This document shows positions 21,262 through 28,648 of a stretch of DNA of 36,871 nucleotides, one piece after another. The stretch lies in IMG/VR virus record IMGVR_UViG_3300045988_105062; one strand, 5' to 3'. Below the pieces are notes generated by a model that saw only the letters and a program-made list of their open reading frames with translations, did not search any database and was not told the DNA's origin. The stretch is from a virus. The translations under genes were made by a program, and so were the position numbers. Positions within the stretch are counted from its first letter, which is position 1, and each line of letters starts with the position of its first letter.

Positions 21262-21741
21262 ATGATAACTTTAAAATATATATATGTAGAAGCAGCACAT
21301 AACAAATTGATACAGCTTGTTATAATAGCAATAATAACAGATACGGTCTTTGGTATGTTAAGAGCAATTAAAGATCACGATTTTAATAGCTGTTTTGGAA
21401 TTAATGGAGCAATCCGAAAATGTGCAATGATTTTATCTATAATATTGCTTGTTATTGTCGATTATATAACACAATTTAATTTAATAGGTTTCTTGCCTGA
21501 AGAAGTAAGACGTTTTTTTGGAGAAAGTATTGGTATCTCTGAATTTTTTGAAATTCTATTTTTAACCTATGAAGTTGTTAGTATATTAAAAAATATGGTT
21601 CTATGTGGATTGCCAGTAAAAAAAGTATGGCTGTATGTTAAGATGTTCCTGAGTAAATATACAGATGAGCTTCCAGATGATGATGAGCTTGCAGATACAA
21701 CAAGCAAAACAGAATTAGGCAATGAAAAATATATTAGTTAG
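21262..21741 (+). CDS. holin (phage_holin_4-like)
   Basis: ITDTVFGMLRAIKDHDFNSCFGINGAIRKCAMILSIILLVIVDYI, at least two TM segments, acidic tail, directly upstream of the endolysin. Confidence 0.75.
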   Translation: MITLKYIYVEAAHNKLIQLVIIAIITDTVFGMLRAIKDHDFNSCFGINGAIRKCAMILSIILLVIVDYITQFNLIGFLPEEVRRFFGESIGISEFFEILFLTYEVVSILKNMVLCGLPVKKVWLYVKMFLSKYTDELPDDDELADTTSKTELGNEKYIS

Positions 21742-21820: not shown

Positions 21821-22738
21821 ATGAATAAACAGGAATTTTTAGATTTAATTGTGCCACTTGCACAGACAGAAGCAGAAAGAAGAAAGATGGCAGGTACAGG
21901 TTTTGTACTTCCAAGCATATGTATCGGACAGGCTGTATTAGAGACAGGCTGGGGCGGATCTGCCTTAATGACAAAGGCTAATGCGTTCTTTGGTATTAAG
22001 GCTACTGAGAGTTGGAATGGAAAAGTATTTAGTTCCTCAACACAGGAGTGCTATGATAATGTTAATTATACTACTATTACAGCAGCATTTAGAGCATATG
22101 ATACTCCAGCTGATAGTGTAAGAGATTATTACGATCTTATCACAAATAATTCACGTTATGCAGCAGCAGTAAATGTAACAGATGCCCTTGAAGCTATTAC
22201 TGCGATTAAAAATGGCGGTTATGCTACAAGTCCTACATATGTAGAAAATGTTATGTCGATTATTAATAGCAATGACTTAACACAGTATGATAATGTAGTA
22301 ACAGAAAATACAGAGTCAAACTTACAGCCTGATATAGATACAACAAAGTATCACGAGGGTGATTTTGTGACATATGACACAATATATGCTTCATCAACAT
22401 CATCAGATGGACTTGTACCATCAAATGGCTTTACTAGTGGCACTATCACGAGAGTTCTTCCGGGTGCGGCAAATCCTTATCTTATTGATGATGGAACAGG
22501 CTGGATTAATGATGGCTGTATTACATCTGAAGATAATTCAAATACTGAAAGCTCTGATAATGATATAAATGTTGGCGATAAGGTGCGTGTGCTTGTTAAT
22601 GCTACTTACGATGGTGGTTCTTTTGCAATGTACTATGATGAATATGATGTATTAGAAGTTAAAGGAGACCGAGTAGTTATCGGTATTGGAGATGTTGTAA
22701 CTTGTGCTATTAATATTTGCAATATCGAAAGAGTTTAA
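21821..22738 (+). CDS. endolysin: GH73 N-acetylglucosaminidase with C-terminal SH3-like binding repeats
   Basis: QAVLETGWGGSALMTKANAFFGIKA glucosaminidase motif. Confidence 0.85.
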   Translation: MNKQEFLDLIVPLAQTEAERRKMAGTGFVLPSICIGQAVLETGWGGSALMTKANAFFGIKATESWNGKVFSSSTQECYDNVNYTTITAAFRAYDTPADSVRDYYDLITNNSRYAAAVNVTDALEAITAIKNGGYATSPTYVENVMSIINSNDLTQYDNVVTENTESNLQPDIDTTKYHEGDFVTYDTIYASSTSSDGLVPSNGFTSGTITRVLPGAANPYLIDDGTGWINDGCITSEDNSNTESSDNDINVGDKVRVLVNATYDGGSFAMYYDEYDVLEVKGDRVVIGIGDVVTCAINICNIERV

Positions 22739-22866: not shown

Positions 22867-22891
22867 AAGAGGGGTTCGCCCCTCTTTTTTT
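22867..22891 (+). terminator. intrinsic terminator of the late operon
   Basis: AAGAGGGG-TTCG-CCCCTCTT followed by T6. Confidence 0.9.
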
Positions 22892-22916: not shown

Positions 22917-22945
22917 TTGACAAAATAGTCGCAAACGACTATTAT
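22917..22945 (+). promoter_or_regulatory. consensus-like promoter TTGACA-17-TATTAT
   Basis: Exact -35 hexamer, 17-nt spacer, TATTAT. Confidence 0.7.
22926..22941. promoter_or_regulatory. operator copy 1: TAGTCGCAAACGACTA (6-bp inverted arms) inside the promoter spacer
   Basis: Identical 16-mer repeated 34 bp downstream. Confidence 0.7.
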
Positions 22946-22959
22946 ATAAATATAAAGAG

Positions 22960-22975
22960 TAGTCGCAAACGACTA
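22960..22975. promoter_or_regulatory. operator copy 2: TAGTCGCAAACGACTA, downstream of the -10
   Basis: Exact second copy. Confidence 0.7.
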
Positions 22976-23064
22976 CAACAAAAATAAAAGAGGATAAGAA
23001 GATGAAAAGAGAAGAAATGAAAAACATAAATAAATAGAGGTTAAATAAAGAAGGGAGAAGAATT

Positions 23065-23385
23065 ATGAAATACGAAATTGAAGAAATTGGAAGAGATAAG
23101 GGGTATAAAATCGGGGAGCAGGAACTCTATAGAATAATAGATACAGTATTCCCAACTCGCGACTTCGGCGAGGGCTGGCACGAGGAAACAAGTGGAAATA
23201 TCTGGGAGAAAGGAGATAAAAAAAGAAATTACCTTAAGTTAAAGAGGTATAGAAACTATAAAATTAGAGAGGAAGAAAATCTCGGCTACTACGACTATAT
23301 AAGAGAAGCTTACATAGTAACAAGCTACAGAATAGTAGTAACTGATGTGATAGAAAAATATAACGAAATGGAAAAGGAAAATTAA
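23065..23385 (+). CDS. hypothetical small protein (106 aa), first gene of the post-lysis moron
   Basis: GAAGGGAGAAG RBS; no recognisable motif. Confidence 0.65.
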   Translation: MKYEIEEIGRDKGYKIGEQELYRIIDTVFPTRDFGEGWHEETSGNIWEKGDKKRNYLKLKRYRNYKIREEENLGYYDYIREAYIVTSYRIVVTDVIEKYNEMEKEN

Positions 23386-23386
23386 A

Positions 23387-23959
23387 ATGAAAACAAATTT
23401 TAAAATGACAGAGGAAATAAGACTAGTTAAACAGTTGGCAAAATTAAATATATTAGGCGTAAGATACGCAGAAAGACACAAAGGCCTTATATACTCGACT
23501 TGGCGAGATGTTGAGCGCTTCATTACAGGCGGCAAACCAGCCTGTACATATGAGTACGCTGTAAATAAACTGTGCGAAAATGCTATGAAGCTGTGCGGAA
23601 ACAGCGATTACCTCGTAAGCGAAACACTTAAGCTTAAAGAGGAGATAGAAAACAGTGATATTAAAGAATTGAGGTTCGGGCTTGAACCTCGAAAGAAATT
23701 TACAGAGCTAGAGAATGAGTTAAATACAGAGCTGACAAAGTATCATCTATTGTATAACTCGGACACAGTAGAAATAAAGAAAGCGGCTGAGATACTTGAC
23801 GGTAAAGTGACAGAGAGTGCAATCAAGCAGGCTTGCCAGCAGGAGCGATTAATGAACACAAAAAAAGTAGGGAATGTGTGGTTGGTGAGCTTATCTGAGT
23901 GCCGCAATTATTGGGAAATACCAGACGATGACGAAAAGGCACTAAAATGGGAGTATTAA
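23387..23959 (+). CDS. hypothetical protein (190 aa) with a C-terminal excisionase/MerR-like HTH
   Basis: IKKAAEILDGKVTESAIKQACQQERLMNTKKVGNVWLVSLSECRNYW; start lies 1 nt after the upstream stop. Confidence 0.6.
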   Translation: MKTNFKMTEEIRLVKQLAKLNILGVRYAERHKGLIYSTWRDVERFITGGKPACTYEYAVNKLCENAMKLCGNSDYLVSETLKLKEEIENSDIKELRFGLEPRKKFTELENELNTELTKYHLLYNSDTVEIKKAAEILDGKVTESAIKQACQQERLMNTKKVGNVWLVSLSECRNYWEIPDDDEKALKWEY

Positions 23960-23981
23960 GATAAAAACACTAAGAAACAAA

Positions 23982-24013
23982 AAAGAGAGACTTAAGCTAA
24001 GTCTCTCTTTTAT
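23982..24013 (+). terminator. intrinsic terminator
   Basis: AAAGAGAGACTTA-AGC-TAAGTCTCTCTTT (13-bp perfect stem) running into TTTTAT. Confidence 0.85.
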
Positions 24014-24151
24014 CACGCCCTGGCGTTGCGGTTTAGAAATAAACTTAAAACATAATTAATGCAAAATCGTATATTTCAATACATATATATGTTACTGTTT
24101 ATGCAATGAAATTAGTATAAAACAAAACGCTATTACTGTCAATCTAAGTTA

Positions 24152-24340
24152 CTACCAACAGAGTGGGACTAATTCCTCAGTGCCGATATCTGTAAGCAGC
24201 CCGGCAACTTCCCTGTATGGCATAGAATATCTTTGCGAGATGTAACGCATAGAAGCACCAAGCTCGCCGTCCGGTCCACCATACTTCAATAAGGTATACT
24301 GCTGAAAAGCCAGCATATATGCGGGTTTGACAACTTGGTA
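24152..24340 (-). pseudogene. cotJC: fragment of a cotJC / manganese-catalase family gene (N-terminal region only)
   Basis: Minus-strand frame gives ...VVKPAYMLAFQQYTLLKYGGPDGELGASMRYISQRYSMPYREVAGLLTDIGTEEL, then VPLCW-stop. This matches the GGxDGEL...Y..Q...LLTDIGTEE core and breaks just before the conserved His. Confidence 0.7.
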
Positions 24341-24368
24341 AAAATATAGTAAGTAAAATGTTTGCTAT

Positions 24369-25835
24369 TTATTTTTGCAGGAAGAAGTACACTTCCAATT
24401 TATCATTTTCTTTATCATATACCATATGGTCAACAACACTTCTTATAGCATTAGCCCTTGTAAGAGTATTATTAGAGGTATCTTTTATAATGTCATATAC
24501 AGTTGATATACTCTTAAGCATGGCTGCATTAGAATCATCAGATGCTAAGCTGAAGGCTTCCAACTGTTTTTTAAGTGCTTTACGTTCGTCCTTAATCAGT
24601 TGTTTATTTTCTTTATATTCTTCTATTGTATCAATTCCATCCCGGTATGCTTGCTTTATTCTTGCTTCTTTATCATCAAGTTTAGATAATTTACTAAGAA
24701 GTATATCTCTGTCATCTGTATTAGCTTCGTTTGAAGCTTTTTTTAGTTCGTAATGCAATTCGGCAGTTCCATCAAAAACTCGTTCAAATGCGTTATATAC
24801 AGCCTGTTCAAGGGCAGCAGTTTTTATAAAATGGCTATGCAGACATTTGCCTTTGTTGTAGTTGCCGCATTGGTAACGTGTAGCATTAAGCCCAGCCATA
24901 AGAGAAGCTCCGCAGTCAGAACATTTCACAATTCCACCAAGCCAATGCTTCATATGTCCAGCGGCTCGTGCTTTGTATGGTTTGCTCCTTAAAGCCATAA
25001 GATGTTGTACCAAATCCCAAGTTTCTTTATTAATTATTGCTGGGTGTTTACCCATAACAATAATCCATTCACTAATGTCCTTTATTGTATGATTGTCGTG
25101 ATTTTGTCTATTCCAGCGGACGGCTCCATAATAAAATGGATTACTTAATATATATTCAACAGTACGTCCCTCAAATGCAGCCCCGCGCTTAGTTTTATAT
25201 CCAAGGGCATTAAGTTCCCTGGCAATTTCCAAGTAGCTGTGGCCGGCAATGTAGTCATTGTATATTTTTCTTACAATAACAGCTTCTTCTTCGTATATGT
25301 AAGGAATGCCAGTCTCTTTATTCATTCGGTATCCAAGAGGCAGAGAAGACTGGTAACCACCTCGTAAGGCTTTCTCAGTCATACCTCTTAGAACTTCGCC
25401 AGACAGACGAATAGAATAGTATTCATCCATCCACTCTATTATACGTTCTATTAAGGTACCAAAAGGACCATCAATAAGTGGCTCGGATACACTCACAACA
25501 TCAACACGGTTCTTTTTAAGTAAAGATTTGTAGACAATCGATTCTTCTTGATTACGCGCAAATCGGCTGAATTTCCATACAAGAATAACATCGAATGGGT
25601 GTTCTTTGCTTTTTGCCATTCCTATCATTTTCATAAATTCTGGTCGTTTGTCTGCTTTCTTGCCGGAAATACCATTATCAATGTAAATGTTTTCTGCCAG
25701 AAGTGACATATTATTCTTTTTTGCAAAGTCAATCAAAAGCCGCTTCTGTGCATCTGGTGAAAGTTCTTCCTGTTTATCTGTGGACACACGTATGTAGGCA
25801 CAAGCAGATTTCATATTAAGTATATCCCTAGCCAT
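24369..25835 (-). CDS. int: large serine recombinase (integrase)
   Basis: CAYIRVSTDKQ catalytic Ser motif, resolvase N-domain, recombinase domain, Cys-rich zinc ribbon CSDCG...CGNYNKGKC, C-terminal coiled coil; start MARD after AAAGGA. Confidence 0.92.
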   Translation of the reverse strand: MARDILNMKSACAYIRVSTDKQEELSPDAQKRLLIDFAKKNNMSLLAENIYIDNGISGKKADKRPEFMKMIGMAKSKEHPFDVILVWKFSRFARNQEESIVYKSLLKKNRVDVVSVSEPLIDGPFGTLIERIIEWMDEYYSIRLSGEVLRGMTEKALRGGYQSSLPLGYRMNKETGIPYIYEEEAVIVRKIYNDYIAGHSYLEIARELNALGYKTKRGAAFEGRTVEYILSNPFYYGAVRWNRQNHDNHTIKDISEWIIVMGKHPAIINKETWDLVQHLMALRSKPYKARAAGHMKHWLGGIVKCSDCGASLMAGLNATRYQCGNYNKGKCLHSHFIKTAALEQAVYNAFERVFDGTAELHYELKKASNEANTDDRDILLSKLSKLDDKEARIKQAYRDGIDTIEEYKENKQLIKDERKALKKQLEAFSLASDDSNAAMLKSISTVYDIIKDTSNNTLTRANAIRSVVDHMVYDKENDKLEVYFFLQK

Positions 25836-25865
25836 ATTAATCATCCTTTCTGTAAAATATATGCA

Positions 25866-26205: not shown

Positions 26206-27807
26206 TTATTCGTCTTCATCATCATCAAGAGAGTATGAGTTAGTATAGTTAGAATCAGAAGAAAGAGATTGACGATATTCGCCAGCTACCATTGTTTTGT
26301 TAAATTCTGCCGTTGGTTCTATTTCATCAACTATCTTTTCAAGCTCATCTATAGATATCTTGAAAAATTCCTTACGCATATTAACTTTATTTACACGTCT
26401 ATCATTAAGTATTTCGTGCATCTTATTTTCAAGAGCTACAGCATCTTTAGAGAATATGAAGCTATGTACATCAAATTTAAAAGGAACGCTGGCGTTTCCG
26501 AGCTCATTAATTCTGTCTTGAGGTTCAAGCCTACGTGTCATACCTACTTTAAATACATCTTCACCAAAAGCTCCTAAGTTACTTATTATATAAACAGTAC
26601 CGGCTTTACCATTTTGTAAGTTAGTTATTTCATCCTTTTTAATAATTACTTCACCTAATTGAGATTGAAGTTCAAGGATTCTTGCCTTGAGTTTATCAAT
26701 TTCTGATTCATCAGTAGTATTTAACATAGTATCTTGCAACTTACTAATTTCAGTATTGAACTTTTCTTCTTCCTGTTGAATATGTTTCTTTTCACGTTCA
26801 AGAGCTTTACGTTCTTCAGCTTCCTGTCGCATTTGTTCTTTAAGAGCCATCTGTTCTTGCTTAGCTTGCTCACGTTTAACATAGTAATTATATTCAATTT
26901 TAACAGCATTAATAAAGAGATATTCTAATTCGCCTATGAACTTTGTAAGAGTACCAGCAATAGTCTGATTGCCTTCGCCAGCAATCTTAAGGTATTTAGC
27001 AGAAATATCTTTTACATGTTCGATTGCAGTATCTAGCTTTTCATATTTTAGTGCATATAATACATTCTGTAATTCAGCTCTTAATGCTATTACCATTAGG
27101 TTGTAGATAGCTTTATTAGCTTTGGTTGTATATCTGGCAGAATATTGCTTTAAAAGATTGTCTATAAGCTTTTCATTATCTTTATAAGCTTTTCGCAGAC
27201 TCTTTATGTCCATACAATGTAATTTAAGAATTACTGAAGGAGCAATTTCTTCGGCATCTTTTAAATCACTTGTGCTTAATATGCAACTATTATAAGGGAT
27301 TTCTAAATTTATGAAGTTATCAAATGCATAAGCAAAACTTTTATACAATTCTTTGGAACGTGATATTTTACGCTGCTGGGTTGCAAGAGATTTTTTTAGT
27401 TTATCATCCTGTTGTTGCAATTCATTAATTTCAGTTCTCAATTTATCAATTAATACATTATTACTCTGTATTTCTTCATTGAGAGAATCAAGGTTAGCCT
27501 TTGCTTCGCTTTCAGCAGAAGCAATCTTTGTGGCTGATTCCTGTTCTATTTGTTCAATCTTTTTCTTTGTTTCTATATATTCAGTAACACCTAGCTCATC
27601 ACATGTTTGTTTCATTTCAGAATATTCCTGCGATAGTTGATTGTTCTGATTGAATGTTTGTGTAAATAGTTCTTTTTGTTTCTTATCATTTACAGCTTTT
27701 ATGATAAGAAGAATAATGCCGATTATAGGCGGAATAATAAGAAACCAGCATGCACATAAAAGTGCAATAAACCAAGTGCTTAAGTACCATTTGCTTTTAG
27801 TGTTCAT
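26206..27807 (-). CDS. membrane-anchored coiled-coil protein with a DUF4041-like region and a C-terminal T5orf172/MUG113 (GIY-YIG superfamily) domain, 533 aa
   Basis: N-terminal TM WYLSTWFIALLCACWFLIIPPIIGIILLII. About 350 aa of Glu/Lys/Gln heptad-like sequence. C-terminus GTVYIISNLGAFGEDVFKVGMTRRLEPQDRINELG...ALENKMHEILNDRRVN...KEFFKISIDEL. AGGAGG lies 9 nt upstream of the ATG at 27807. Confidence 0.8.
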   Translation of the reverse strand: MNTKSKWYLSTWFIALLCACWFLIIPPIIGIILLIIKAVNDKKQKELFTQTFNQNNQLSQEYSEMKQTCDELGVTEYIETKKKIEQIEQESATKIASAESEAKANLDSLNEEIQSNNVLIDKLRTEINELQQQDDKLKKSLATQQRKISRSKELYKSFAYAFDNFINLEIPYNSCILSTSDLKDAEEIAPSVILKLHCMDIKSLRKAYKDNEKLIDNLLKQYSARYTTKANKAIYNLMVIALRAELQNVLYALKYEKLDTAIEHVKDISAKYLKIAGEGNQTIAGTLTKFIGELEYLFINAVKIEYNYYVKREQAKQEQMALKEQMRQEAEERKALEREKKHIQQEEEKFNTEISKLQDTMLNTTDESEIDKLKARILELQSQLGEVIIKKDEITNLQNGKAGTVYIISNLGAFGEDVFKVGMTRRLEPQDRINELGNASVPFKFDVHSFIFSKDAVALENKMHEILNDRRVNKVNMRKEFFKISIDELEKIVDEIEPTAEFNKTMVAGEYRQSLSSDSNYTNSYSLDDDEDE

Positions 27808-27823
27808 AATTGTTAGCCTCCTA

Positions 27824-28648
27824 TTATAATAATTTCCAACTGTATCCACAATTTAAGCATTTAACTACACCTTGTTTGCTTGAAAGTCCGCCTATAATTG
27901 CTCCAGTACTTCCAAATGCAGCACCTCCAAGAAGAGCTCTTCCCAAACTTAATTTTTTAGTGGAATAGTTTATGCTGGTACTTCCACATTTAGGACAACA
28001 AGCTATTCCATTAGCTTTGTTTTCTTTTACTTTTTCTTTAATCTGTCCTTTTTTTGTAATTGATGGATTCTTTGTATTCCAAATAGGAGTGCCATTTTTG
28101 GGATGTGGCACATTTCCTATAATTGTATTTATTTTTTCAGTATCATTTTTATCTACAATATAAAATCCGGTATCCTTTTTTCCACAATAAGGGCATTTTT
28201 CAGCTTTTACTAGTAACTTATCACCGCAATTATTACAGATTTTTATTTTATTAGATAAATCATTACCATTGGAATCTGTAATTATATTTTTTTCTAAGAA
28301 TTGATGTACATCTTTTATATCAGAATTAACACCGGTATATAATAGTCCATCATATATTTTTTTGAGTTTTTTATCTGATGCAGACAAAACCCAGAAATTA
28401 TCATCAATAAATTCTATTACAATGTAAGGATTTGCTAAAAATACATTAGTAATTTCCTCGCTTTTATATAAAGATTTTGTATTACCTGTAACGTCGAGGA
28501 GTAATCCTGCGTTATATAGTCCAATACTACAATAGGTTTTTTCAGCAGATGATGTTCCATTTATATATTTTGCAGTAGTAAGAAATGTAAAACTTGAAAA
28601 CCCTCCTTCTTTTTTTATATTTTTGAATTGTTCCTTAGATATATCCAT
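27824..28648 (-). CDS. double zinc-ribbon protein with a C-terminal glycine-zipper segment, 274 aa
   Basis: CNNCGDKLLVKAEKCPYCG, and CCPKCG...GGAAFGSTGAIIGG...CLNCG; start lies 1 nt after the upstream stop. Confidence 0.7.
   Translation of the reverse strand: MDISKEQFKNIKKEGGFSSFTFLTTAKYINGTSSAEKTYCSIGLYNAGLLLDVTGNTKSLYKSEEITNVFLANPYIVIEFIDDNFWVLSASDKKLKKIYDGLLYTGVNSDIKDVHQFLEKNIITDSNGNDLSNKIKICNNCGDKLLVKAEKCPYCGKKDTGFYIVDKNDTEKINTIIGNVPHPKNGTPIWNTKNPSITKKGQIKEKVKENKANGIACCPKCGSTSINYSTKKLSLGRALLGGAAFGSTGAIIGGLSSKQGVVKCLNCGYSWKLL

Follow-up and report, generated by a model that had tools for sequence, protein, structure and literature searches.

Does the two-gene unit that lies between the lysis genes and the integrase of a temperate phage form an operon controlled by its own second gene, and what might its first gene do? 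This question is raised by positions 22917 to 24013 of a 36,871-nt viral sequence (IMG/VR record IMGVR_UViG_3300045988_105062), which represents the circularly permuted genome of a temperate phage and is referred to as the window over its full length. The unit, here called the cassette, comprises a near-consensus promoter with two copies of a dyad, a gene for a protein of 106 amino acids (aa; the cargo) and a gene for a 190-aa protein with a C-terminal helix-turn-helix (HTH) domain (the regulator). The original prediction, made from the sequence alone, had compared this arrangement to anti-CRISPR (acr) operons and their aca regulators. A comparison of about 50 loci strongly supports such an architecture, i.e. 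an insulated accessory (moron) unit with a strong two-operator promoter and a co-encoded HTH autoregulator.

A promoter with two operators

The cassette is headed by a sigma-A-type promoter, TTGACA-17-TATTAT (22917..22945, plus strand), whose −35 (22917-22922) and −10 elements (22940-22945) gave 11 of 12 consensus matches in a consensus scan and from which we infer a transcription start at about 22952. Two exact copies of TAGTCGCAAACGACTA, a 6-4-6 dyad (TAGTCG-CAAA-CGACTA), are located 34 bp apart (start to start). The first copy, O1 (22926..22941), lies within the promoter spacer and overlaps the −10 element by 2 nt. The second copy, O2 (22960..22975), corresponds to about +8 to +23 of the transcript and could also fold as a hairpin of 6-7 bp at the 5′ end of the mRNA (22959-22976). 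A search for the 16-mer with up to 3 mismatches revealed 2 sites in 36.9 kb, namely O1 and O2, compared to 0.19 expected by chance, and a dyad search with free centre and at most 1 mismatch again returned just these two. A global phage regulator was ruled out, as no further operator is present within the window. The dyads are followed by the cargo gene (23065..23385, plus strand), which has the ribosome-binding site GGGAG, and by the regulator gene (23387..23959, plus strand), whose ATG is positioned 1 nt past the cargo stop. The promoter, both dyad copies, both open reading frames (ORFs) and the 1-nt gap were thus all recovered where the original prediction had placed them.

Homologues were collected from a protein database, contig look-ups, GTDB genomes, IMG/VR and PLSDB plasmids. 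Proteins with 35-99% identity to the 190-aa protein are encoded in about 50 loci on prophages, phage-plasmids and plasmids of Lachnospira and Clostridium, and these loci represent 25 distinct versions of the promoter-operator region. A pair of dyads of the form TAG[T/G]CG-N4-CGACTA, with at most 1 mismatch each, is found directly upstream of the operon in all but 3 of the 25 versions. The exceptions (O2 of loci L010/L011, the Clostridium botulinum plasmid pCLK, and L050-L053, in which O1 is degenerate) show two mismatches in at least one dyad. In loci having a pair, the distance from O1 to O2 is 29-36 bp (start to start). As far as the promoters were read by eye, the first dyad is always located inside the 17-bp spacer between −35 and −10, where it either overlaps the −10 element by 2 nt or exactly fills the spacer.

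The half-sites are conserved across the loci, and the 4-bp centre occurs in at least 12 different sequences. In pCLK both operators read TAATCG-N4-CGATTA, so that the change is mirrored in both half-sites. Conserved half-sites with a free centre argue for a dimeric DNA-binding protein, rather than RNA structure or sequence inertia, as the cause of conservation. The combined operator and promoter pattern is found on 14 of the 2.9 million IMG/VR contigs; 13 of these were already known to carry the regulator, and the operon of the 14th runs off the contig end.

Judged from this comparison of sequences, the dyads are a real operator pair that is tied to the 190-aa protein. It is very likely that this protein binds both operators and represses its own promoter. 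Repression is the likely outcome because O1 occupies the core promoter, O2 lies in the first transcribed nucleotides and the spacer already has its optimal length. A MerR-type activator was considered and rejected, as the spacer is of the optimal 17 bp here and likewise in the related promoters read by eye. The co-inheritance of the HTH protein with the dyad pair in about 50 loci therefore speaks for the predicted role of this protein as autoregulator of a doubly operated promoter.

Both ends of the cassette are marked by hairpins. On the left side, an intrinsic terminator of the late/lysis operon (22867..22891, plus strand) consists of an 8-pair GC-rich stem (22867-22886) followed by a T-run. 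It is identical in L001, L004, L005 and L006 despite their differing endolysin genes; it shields the cassette from upstream transcription and is a conserved left boundary in related prophages. On the right side, the cassette is closed by a hairpin (23981..24011) with an A-run before and a T-run after it, which the terminator scan called on the minus strand and which is kept in L020, L037, L040, L041 and L046. Because of the A-run on one side and the T-run on the other, it probably acts in both directions. A terminator had been predicted at this place, and it is indeed present, although its stem has 14 pairs and not 13.

This hairpin is also faced by a promoter on the minus strand, TTGACA-17-TATACT (24142-24114), which matches the consensus at 11 of 12 positions and points towards the cassette, with the bidirectional terminator (24011-23981) following after about 95 nt. 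From this promoter and terminator a non-coding transcript of about 125-130 nt is expected (window 23975-24142, minus strand). Its predicted folding is better than that of shuffled sequence (z=−3.9), it has no match in Rfam and contains no ORF recognisable by eye, and the stretch travels together with the cassette in L020, L037, L040, L041 and L046. No Rfam family was found elsewhere in the window.

Within the 112-nt leader of the operon a mini-ORF of 11 codons (MKREEMKNINK, 23003..23038, plus strand) is present, which has a ribosome-binding site of its own. Alignment did not recover it in the leaders of L001, L004, L005, L006 and L020; the leader of L019, of which only the start was compared, is apparently similar to the window leader with the mini-ORF. 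The mini-ORF was dropped as a candidate regulatory element, since it is unconserved in the aligned relatives, where this leader segment is mostly missing, and by this alignment it is probably non-functional. The GC content of the cassette (35.8%) equals that of the phage (36.1%) and thus gives no compositional hint of recent import.

The regulator family and its exchangeable cargo

An AlphaFold2 model of the 190-aa protein (predicted local distance difference test score, pLDDT, 86.8; predicted template modelling score, pTM, 0.82) shows a five-helix domain (residues 1-125) followed by a winged helix (residues 127-175). The only meaningful structural neighbours of the winged helix in Foldseek are BldC (6amk, template modelling (TM) score 0.70; 6ama, TM 0.62) and the RdfS excisionase (8dgl, TM 0.51). 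By sequence, the PHROG family phrog_6401 ('DNA binding protein') weakly matches residues 126-175 (E=1e-4). The excisionase/MerR-type HTH that had been predicted at the C-terminus is therefore real, though weak by sequence, and the excisionase-type fold covers just one third of the protein. The recognition motif KQACQQERL is invariant in 20 aligned proteins and reads KQAAQQERL in the plasmid homologue L049.

The whole model has no Foldseek neighbour with E<0.01 in PDB and BFVD, and the protein has no match above noise in Pfam, NCBIfam or PADLOC. A profile of the protein run against all PDB sequences gave nothing below E=0.1; this sequence set presumably includes the solved Aca and AcrIIA1 structures. 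Membership in a described Aca family (Aca1-14) or in AcrIIA1 was not found in Pfam, NCBIfam, PDB or with Foldseek, all of them searches without an Aca-dedicated set of hidden Markov models. The N-terminal domain (about residues 1-125), which contains conserved motifs including LRFGLEP, is new and has no neighbour in PDB. Presumably it supplies the symmetric dimer that palindromic sites need.

The 106-aa protein is mildly acidic (pI 5.35) and beta-rich. Its AlphaFold2 model (pLDDT 88) consists of a beta-hairpin, a helix, a beta-meander of three hairpins and a final helix. Foldseek found no neighbour with E<0.01 in PDB or BFVD, and the PDB sequence profile returned nothing. The model weakly resembles single-strand-annealing proteins of the Rad52, Mgm101 and ERF type (E 0.07-0.4, TM 0.2-0.3); as a lead, the repetition of these weak model-based matches gives only a hint at nucleic-acid binding. 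The protein belongs to a rare family, of which a set of 1.84 billion proteins yielded 27 representatives. In line with the original prediction, which had seen no recognisable motif, the protein has no significant match in Pfam, PHROGs, NCBIfam, PADLOC or PDB.

A search with the HTH protein as bait, as had been suggested for guilt by association, revealed at least six unrelated families of small proteins around this one regulator family, encoded upstream or downstream of it. Many relatives of the 106-aa protein possess an extra N-terminal helical hairpin, e.g. of the form ...AHKMAKEIKxEYPxVDY..LCLSYL or ...MKRAWEIKK..F.LCLKMAW. This hairpin precedes a domain of the 106-aa type in L007, L048 and L050, and it is fused to an unrelated GSEKQIxWAxDIR module (phrog_6775) in L010, L034, L047 and L049. 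A family of 98-141 aa is additionally encoded in L047 and L048, and a family of 72-79 aa in L015 and L036, the latter locus having three genes ahead of the regulator; a 71-aa gene in the corresponding position of L048 may or may not belong to this family. Further cargo comprises genes for 180 and 162 aa and downstream genes for 142, 144 or 112 aa. The regulator gene is the first gene in L012, L017 and L018, with other genes downstream, and it stands alone, without cargo, in L023-L028, L030 and L031. Genes 3′ of the regulator in L017 were suspected to be CRISPR-associated; Pfam found nothing there.

The similarity of the regulator N-domains does not follow the cargo. Identity is 70% between N-domains with different cargo and 49-63% between those with the same cargo, and it reaches 94% between a locus with and one without cargo, so that N-domain similarity is independent of cargo type. 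The cargo families also occur without the regulator, e.g. after the lysis genes of the C. difficile element L054. From these gene orders and identities we conclude, with high confidence, that the cassette is anchored by its regulator and swaps its cargo: promoter, operators and regulator appear stable, and the cargo position acts as an exchange site. Homology searches (Pfam, PHROGs, NCBIfam, PADLOC) covered both window proteins and nine cargo proteins, and yielded only sub-threshold noise, besides PHROGs of unknown function for some cargo.

The helical hairpin itself recurs in L007, L010, L034, L047-L050 and L054 as well as in the proteins P0041-P0064. It is found in small proteins of clostridial phages and plasmids in the forms FKEAHKMAKEIKKEYPxVDYxxQFSLCLSYL or MKRAWEIKK...F.LCLKMAWEE, fused to at least three unrelated C-terminal modules. 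Near-identical hairpins are combined with different C-termini (L007 vs. L010), and the hairpin proteins look like a polymorphic, domain-swapping family.

Genomic setting, host and CRISPR context

The cassette occupies several kinds of genomic position. It follows lysis genes with at least three types of endolysin, is located at the end of the early region ahead of the terminase in L010, and lies beside tyrosine integrases in L012 and L050 and beside a serine integrase in the window and in L041; elsewhere no integrase is adjacent. It is also carried by phage-plasmids of C. tetani and Clostridiaceae and by the 267-kb plasmid pCLK. An identical 190-aa protein (P0006) is encoded by two prophage types with different endolysins. 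In L008 and L029 the cassette adjoins hicAB. In the L008-type phages hicA-hicB are located 3′ of the regulator and have a consensus promoter of their own with the palindrome ATACGCATAATGCGTAT, and in both loci they add another autoregulated moron to the cassette at this end of the prophage.

In the window, late genes, holin (21262-21741), glucosaminidase endolysin (21821-22738), cassette, attP region, integrase, lysogeny module and early genes follow each other in this order. The large serine integrase (491 aa, 24369-25844) is encoded on the strand opposite to the cassette. Alignment of the window with the integrated copy L040 placed the crossover at about 24276-24283, inside the reading frame of manganese catalase/cotJC, and the cassette is thus the last unit before attR in the prophage. 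GroEL encoded near the integration site is identical to entries of Lachnospira pectinoschiza and [Lactobacillus] rogosae, which identifies the host as Lachnospira. The original prediction had drawn on the Listeria prophage setting; the element instead belongs to a prophage of Lachnospira with cotJC as its integration site. Exact copies of the 106-aa protein are recorded on 398 contigs and of the 190-aa protein on 106, which makes them a common gene pair of gut prophages. In INPHARED, neither a DNA search with the cassette nor tblastn with the regulator returned a relative, and megablast with window positions 12000-36871 likewise returned none.

Several details of the attachment site were observed. 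A 54-aa ORF (24152-24316, minus strand) matches positions 28-67 of the Pfam family Mn_catalase (E=2.6e-9). The window is identical to the L040 junction up to 24283 and divergent beyond, so that the phage holds about 124 bp of cotJC-like sequence (24160-24283). The cotJC gene is split by integration: an N-terminal ORF of 71 aa remains at attR, and at attL, directly downstream of int, the remainder probably begins with a start provided by the phage (MLAFQQYTLLKY) and continues into the host part. The same Y-G-G position of cotJC is used by another type of phage, L008. In 7 of 10 long contigs (L037-L039, L042, L043, L045, L046; ~10775) similarity to the window stops at about 24160, after which a 778-aa FtsX-like permease and an ABC ATPase replace the cotJC/attP sequence. 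This junction represents either a rearranged prophage end (a grounded prophage) or the insertion of extra cargo. The contig L041 (= L005), which carries a phage of the GH25 type with an integrase 88% identical to that of the window, shows the attP-integrase arrangement of a free phage intact, yet within a scaffold of 241 kb. Possible explanations are a tandem copy, a copy that is not integrated, another mode of integration or an assembly error. Between integrase and repressor of the window a 547-aa T5orf172/MUG113 protein is encoded (26206-27849, minus strand), which matches the PADLOC model PD-Lambda-1 (E=1e-82). The lysogeny module of the prophage therefore holds a known anti-phage defence gene.

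In some Lachnospira a Cas12a-cas1-cas2 locus with an array (repeat GTTAAGTAACYTAAATAATTTCTACTGTGTGTAGAT) is located between cotJB and the next host gene. It is present right beside the prophage in L040 (12006-17350) and absent in L044. One Cas12a spacer (L088 1-170), with a TTTA protospacer-adjacent motif, matches the tape-measure region of a sister prophage (L037 636-671) at 32 of 32 positions; this targeted prophage is of the GH25 type and carries the same cassette. The seven spacers of the array next to the L040 prophage gave no match.

Possible functions and comparison with known systems

We propose that the cassette is a self-contained accessory operon which is built like an anti-CRISPR/aca locus and whose early-acting cargo is autorepressed by the 190-aa regulator, and we give this reading about an even chance. 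According to this model, host RNA polymerase would fire the near-consensus promoter once the DNA enters the cell, with low-level expression in the lysogen, and the transcript would yield the 106-aa cargo and, by coupled translation, the regulator. The regulator would dimerise via its helical N-domain and bind the two palindromic operators with its C-terminal winged helix. Bound to O1, it would fill the −35/−10 spacer and shut out polymerase, and O2 at +8 to +23 would serve as a second clamp or roadblock. Expression would then be a burst followed by tight autorepression. Regulator and promoter-operator region would form a stable mobile module, and unrelated small genes would be swapped at its cargo position. 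As a step that we infer, the cargo would most probably hit a host function early in infection, in the sense of counter-defence or host takeover.

That the cargo is specifically directed against defence is a more tentative claim, to which we give somewhat less than an even chance. Cargo turnover, the small size of the proteins and their lack of homologues, the location in accessory islands of phages and plasmids, the adjacent, variable Cas12a locus and the Cas12a spacer directed at a cassette-bearing sister prophage would all be consistent with it. More doubtful, and rather unlikely in our view, is the further proposal that a new Aca family of distinct structure starts with the 190-aa protein and marks at least six uncharacterised anti-defence families in mobile elements of Lachnospira and Clostridium, at least one of which inhibits Cas12a (type V-A) or clostridial type I-B; the inhibitor would possibly be the 106-aa protein or the N-domain of the regulator.

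Several observations weigh against an operon of the anti-CRISPR/aca kind. The regulator could not be assigned to any described Aca family, and the cargo matches no solved Acr and no anti-defence or defence model in the general libraries, none of them an Acr-dedicated set. None of the 170 distinct spacers from 38 arrays of the host clade matches the window phage, and no self-targeting lysogen or self-targeting spacer was found among those Cas12a spacers. In the cargo-less loci the regulator is kept alone, which a regulator with a function of its own would fit at least as well. Regulators of the Aca type are also often found where no acr gene is present (PMC9410906), and the architecture is therefore no proof of anti-defence. 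Finally, the variable O1-O2 spacing (29-36 bp) leaves the helical phase unfixed, which weakens models of rigid cooperative binding.

The cassette might instead benefit the lysogen, with cargo for superinfection exclusion or abortive infection or of a toxin-like kind, and with the 190-aa protein as its autoregulating partner. In toxin-first operons such as higBA and mqsRA, the first gene is small, the second is larger and encodes a C-terminal HTH, and the promoter carries two palindromes. The cassette resembles them in all these respects, and the 1-nt gap after the small first gene suggests translational coupling. Defence morons are typically located at the end of a prophage, as is the cassette, hicAB is adjacent in L008 and L029, and the window phage has defence cargo elsewhere (PD-Lambda-1). 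However, the partner of the regulator is not fixed as in a toxin pair: the regulator stays, and its cargo may be replaced, consist of several genes, lie on the downstream side or be missing altogether. The cargo families also occur without the regulator (L054), and the N-domain does not co-vary with the cargo. Moreover, the 106-aa protein lacks a toxin fold, having no PADLOC match, no Pfam toxin family and no RelE- or MqsR-like Foldseek match. We consider a lysogen-benefit moron unlikely. Still less likely, although compatible with the proposed operon, is that the 190-aa protein is an effector as well as a repressor and that the small genes are passengers. AcrIIA1 and large Aca9 homologues are precedents for this (PMC9410906), and since AcrIIA1 is also an effector, such a role would explain the loci in which the regulator is alone or the first gene (L012, L017, L018, L023-L028, L030-L031). 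The large, confidently folded and new N-domain with its conserved motifs (LRFGLEP) points in the same direction. Nevertheless, this domain may be a mere dimerisation domain, because symmetric dyads need a dimer and BldC-like winged helices alone form no symmetric dimers. The cargo-less loci, in turn, come from close contigs, mostly of one metagenome, and may reflect a single recent deletion.

The alternative offered in the original prediction, in which the 190-aa protein would serve the neighbouring serine integrase as recombination directionality factor (excisionase), is very improbable. It would account for the excisionase-like winged helix (RdfS 8dgl, TM 0.51), for the fact that in the circular form the regulator gene and the integrase lie on either side of attP, and for the presence of this gene near the att site in all cotJC-integrating phages (window, L040, L008). 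Yet recognisable sites are found only in the regulator's own promoter and none in the attP region (24014-24368), and the family, with KQACQQERL unchanged, also occurs with tyrosine integrases (L012, L050), ahead of the terminase (L010), on pCLK and on phage-plasmids. Recombination directionality factors of serine integrases act by protein contacts with the integrase, and such different integrases would not share a partner. The wide spread across integrase types and the lack of an operator-like site in attP thus disfavour this role.

If an Aca-like repressor is confirmed, the regulator together with its defined operator would provide a search handle for counter-defence genes in gut Lachnospiraceae and Clostridium, for which almost no validated anti-defence proteins were found in the literature that was searched. 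The handle would reach plasmids and phage-plasmids of C. botulinum, C. tetani and C. sporogenes. Since Cas12a is present in the host clade, any inhibitor discovered in this way could be of practical use. Should the cargo turn out to do something else, the cassette still documents a regulator-anchored site of gene exchange that is common to phages and plasmids. Regardless of the cargo, the compact combination of promoter, operators and repressor offers clostridial genetics a ready-made part for autoregulated expression.

Among known proteins, residues 127-175 of the regulator share the fold of the MerR-like winged helices of BldC, Xis and RdfS. BldC and excisionase proteins are stand-alone domains of 50-70 aa that bind head-to-tail direct repeats or the arms of att sites, whereas here the domain is fused to a helical domain of 125 aa and paired with symmetric promoter dyads. 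MerR-activated promoters differ as well, having a spacer of 19-20 bp in contrast to the optimal 17 bp of the cassette. For the AcrIIA1 loci of Listeria prophages, the 2017 work of Rauch et al. is said to place them behind the endolysin at the prophage end, a position that the cassette would share. An autorepressing HTH protein set over small accessory genes is likewise common to both (PMC9410906). In AcrIIA1, however, the HTH is N-terminal and the inhibitor domain C-terminal, so that the order is opposite to that in the 190-aa regulator, and the two proteins show no sequence or structural similarity (PDB profile, Foldseek).

The closest likeness is to the acr-aca operons. The operons of Aca1-10 and AcrIIA1 as a rule have a consensus promoter whose core contains one inverted repeat; in several families a second, similar repeat is found up- or downstream, and repression is exerted through these repeats (PMC9410906). 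The variable small genes precede the regulator gene, which closes the operon, and regulators also occur alone (PMC9410906; PMC6765145). As in acrIF1-aca1 of JBD30 and acrIF8-aca2 of ZF40, the promoter of the cassette is a strong consensus promoter with an inverted repeat in its core and a second repeat. As in such operons, too, small unrelated genes are located upstream of a conserved HTH gene, the cargo is exchanged, and the carriers are phages, prophages and plasmids (PMC9410906, PMC6765145). The described Aca families are mostly short HTH proteins of the Cro/C1 type, and Aca14 is a ribbon-helix-helix protein (PMC13551039). In contrast, the regulator described here has 190 aa and combines a C-terminal winged helix of the excisionase/BldC-like type with a new N-domain, O2 is located within the leader of the transcript, the cargo is none of the known Acrs, and the hosts are Lachnospira and Clostridium. 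The cassette therefore resembles the acr-aca operons in layout but cannot be claimed as one of them. The Aca-like autorepressed operon is a known kind, and what is new here is the regulator family together with its precisely defined operator, TAGTCG-N4-CGACTA.

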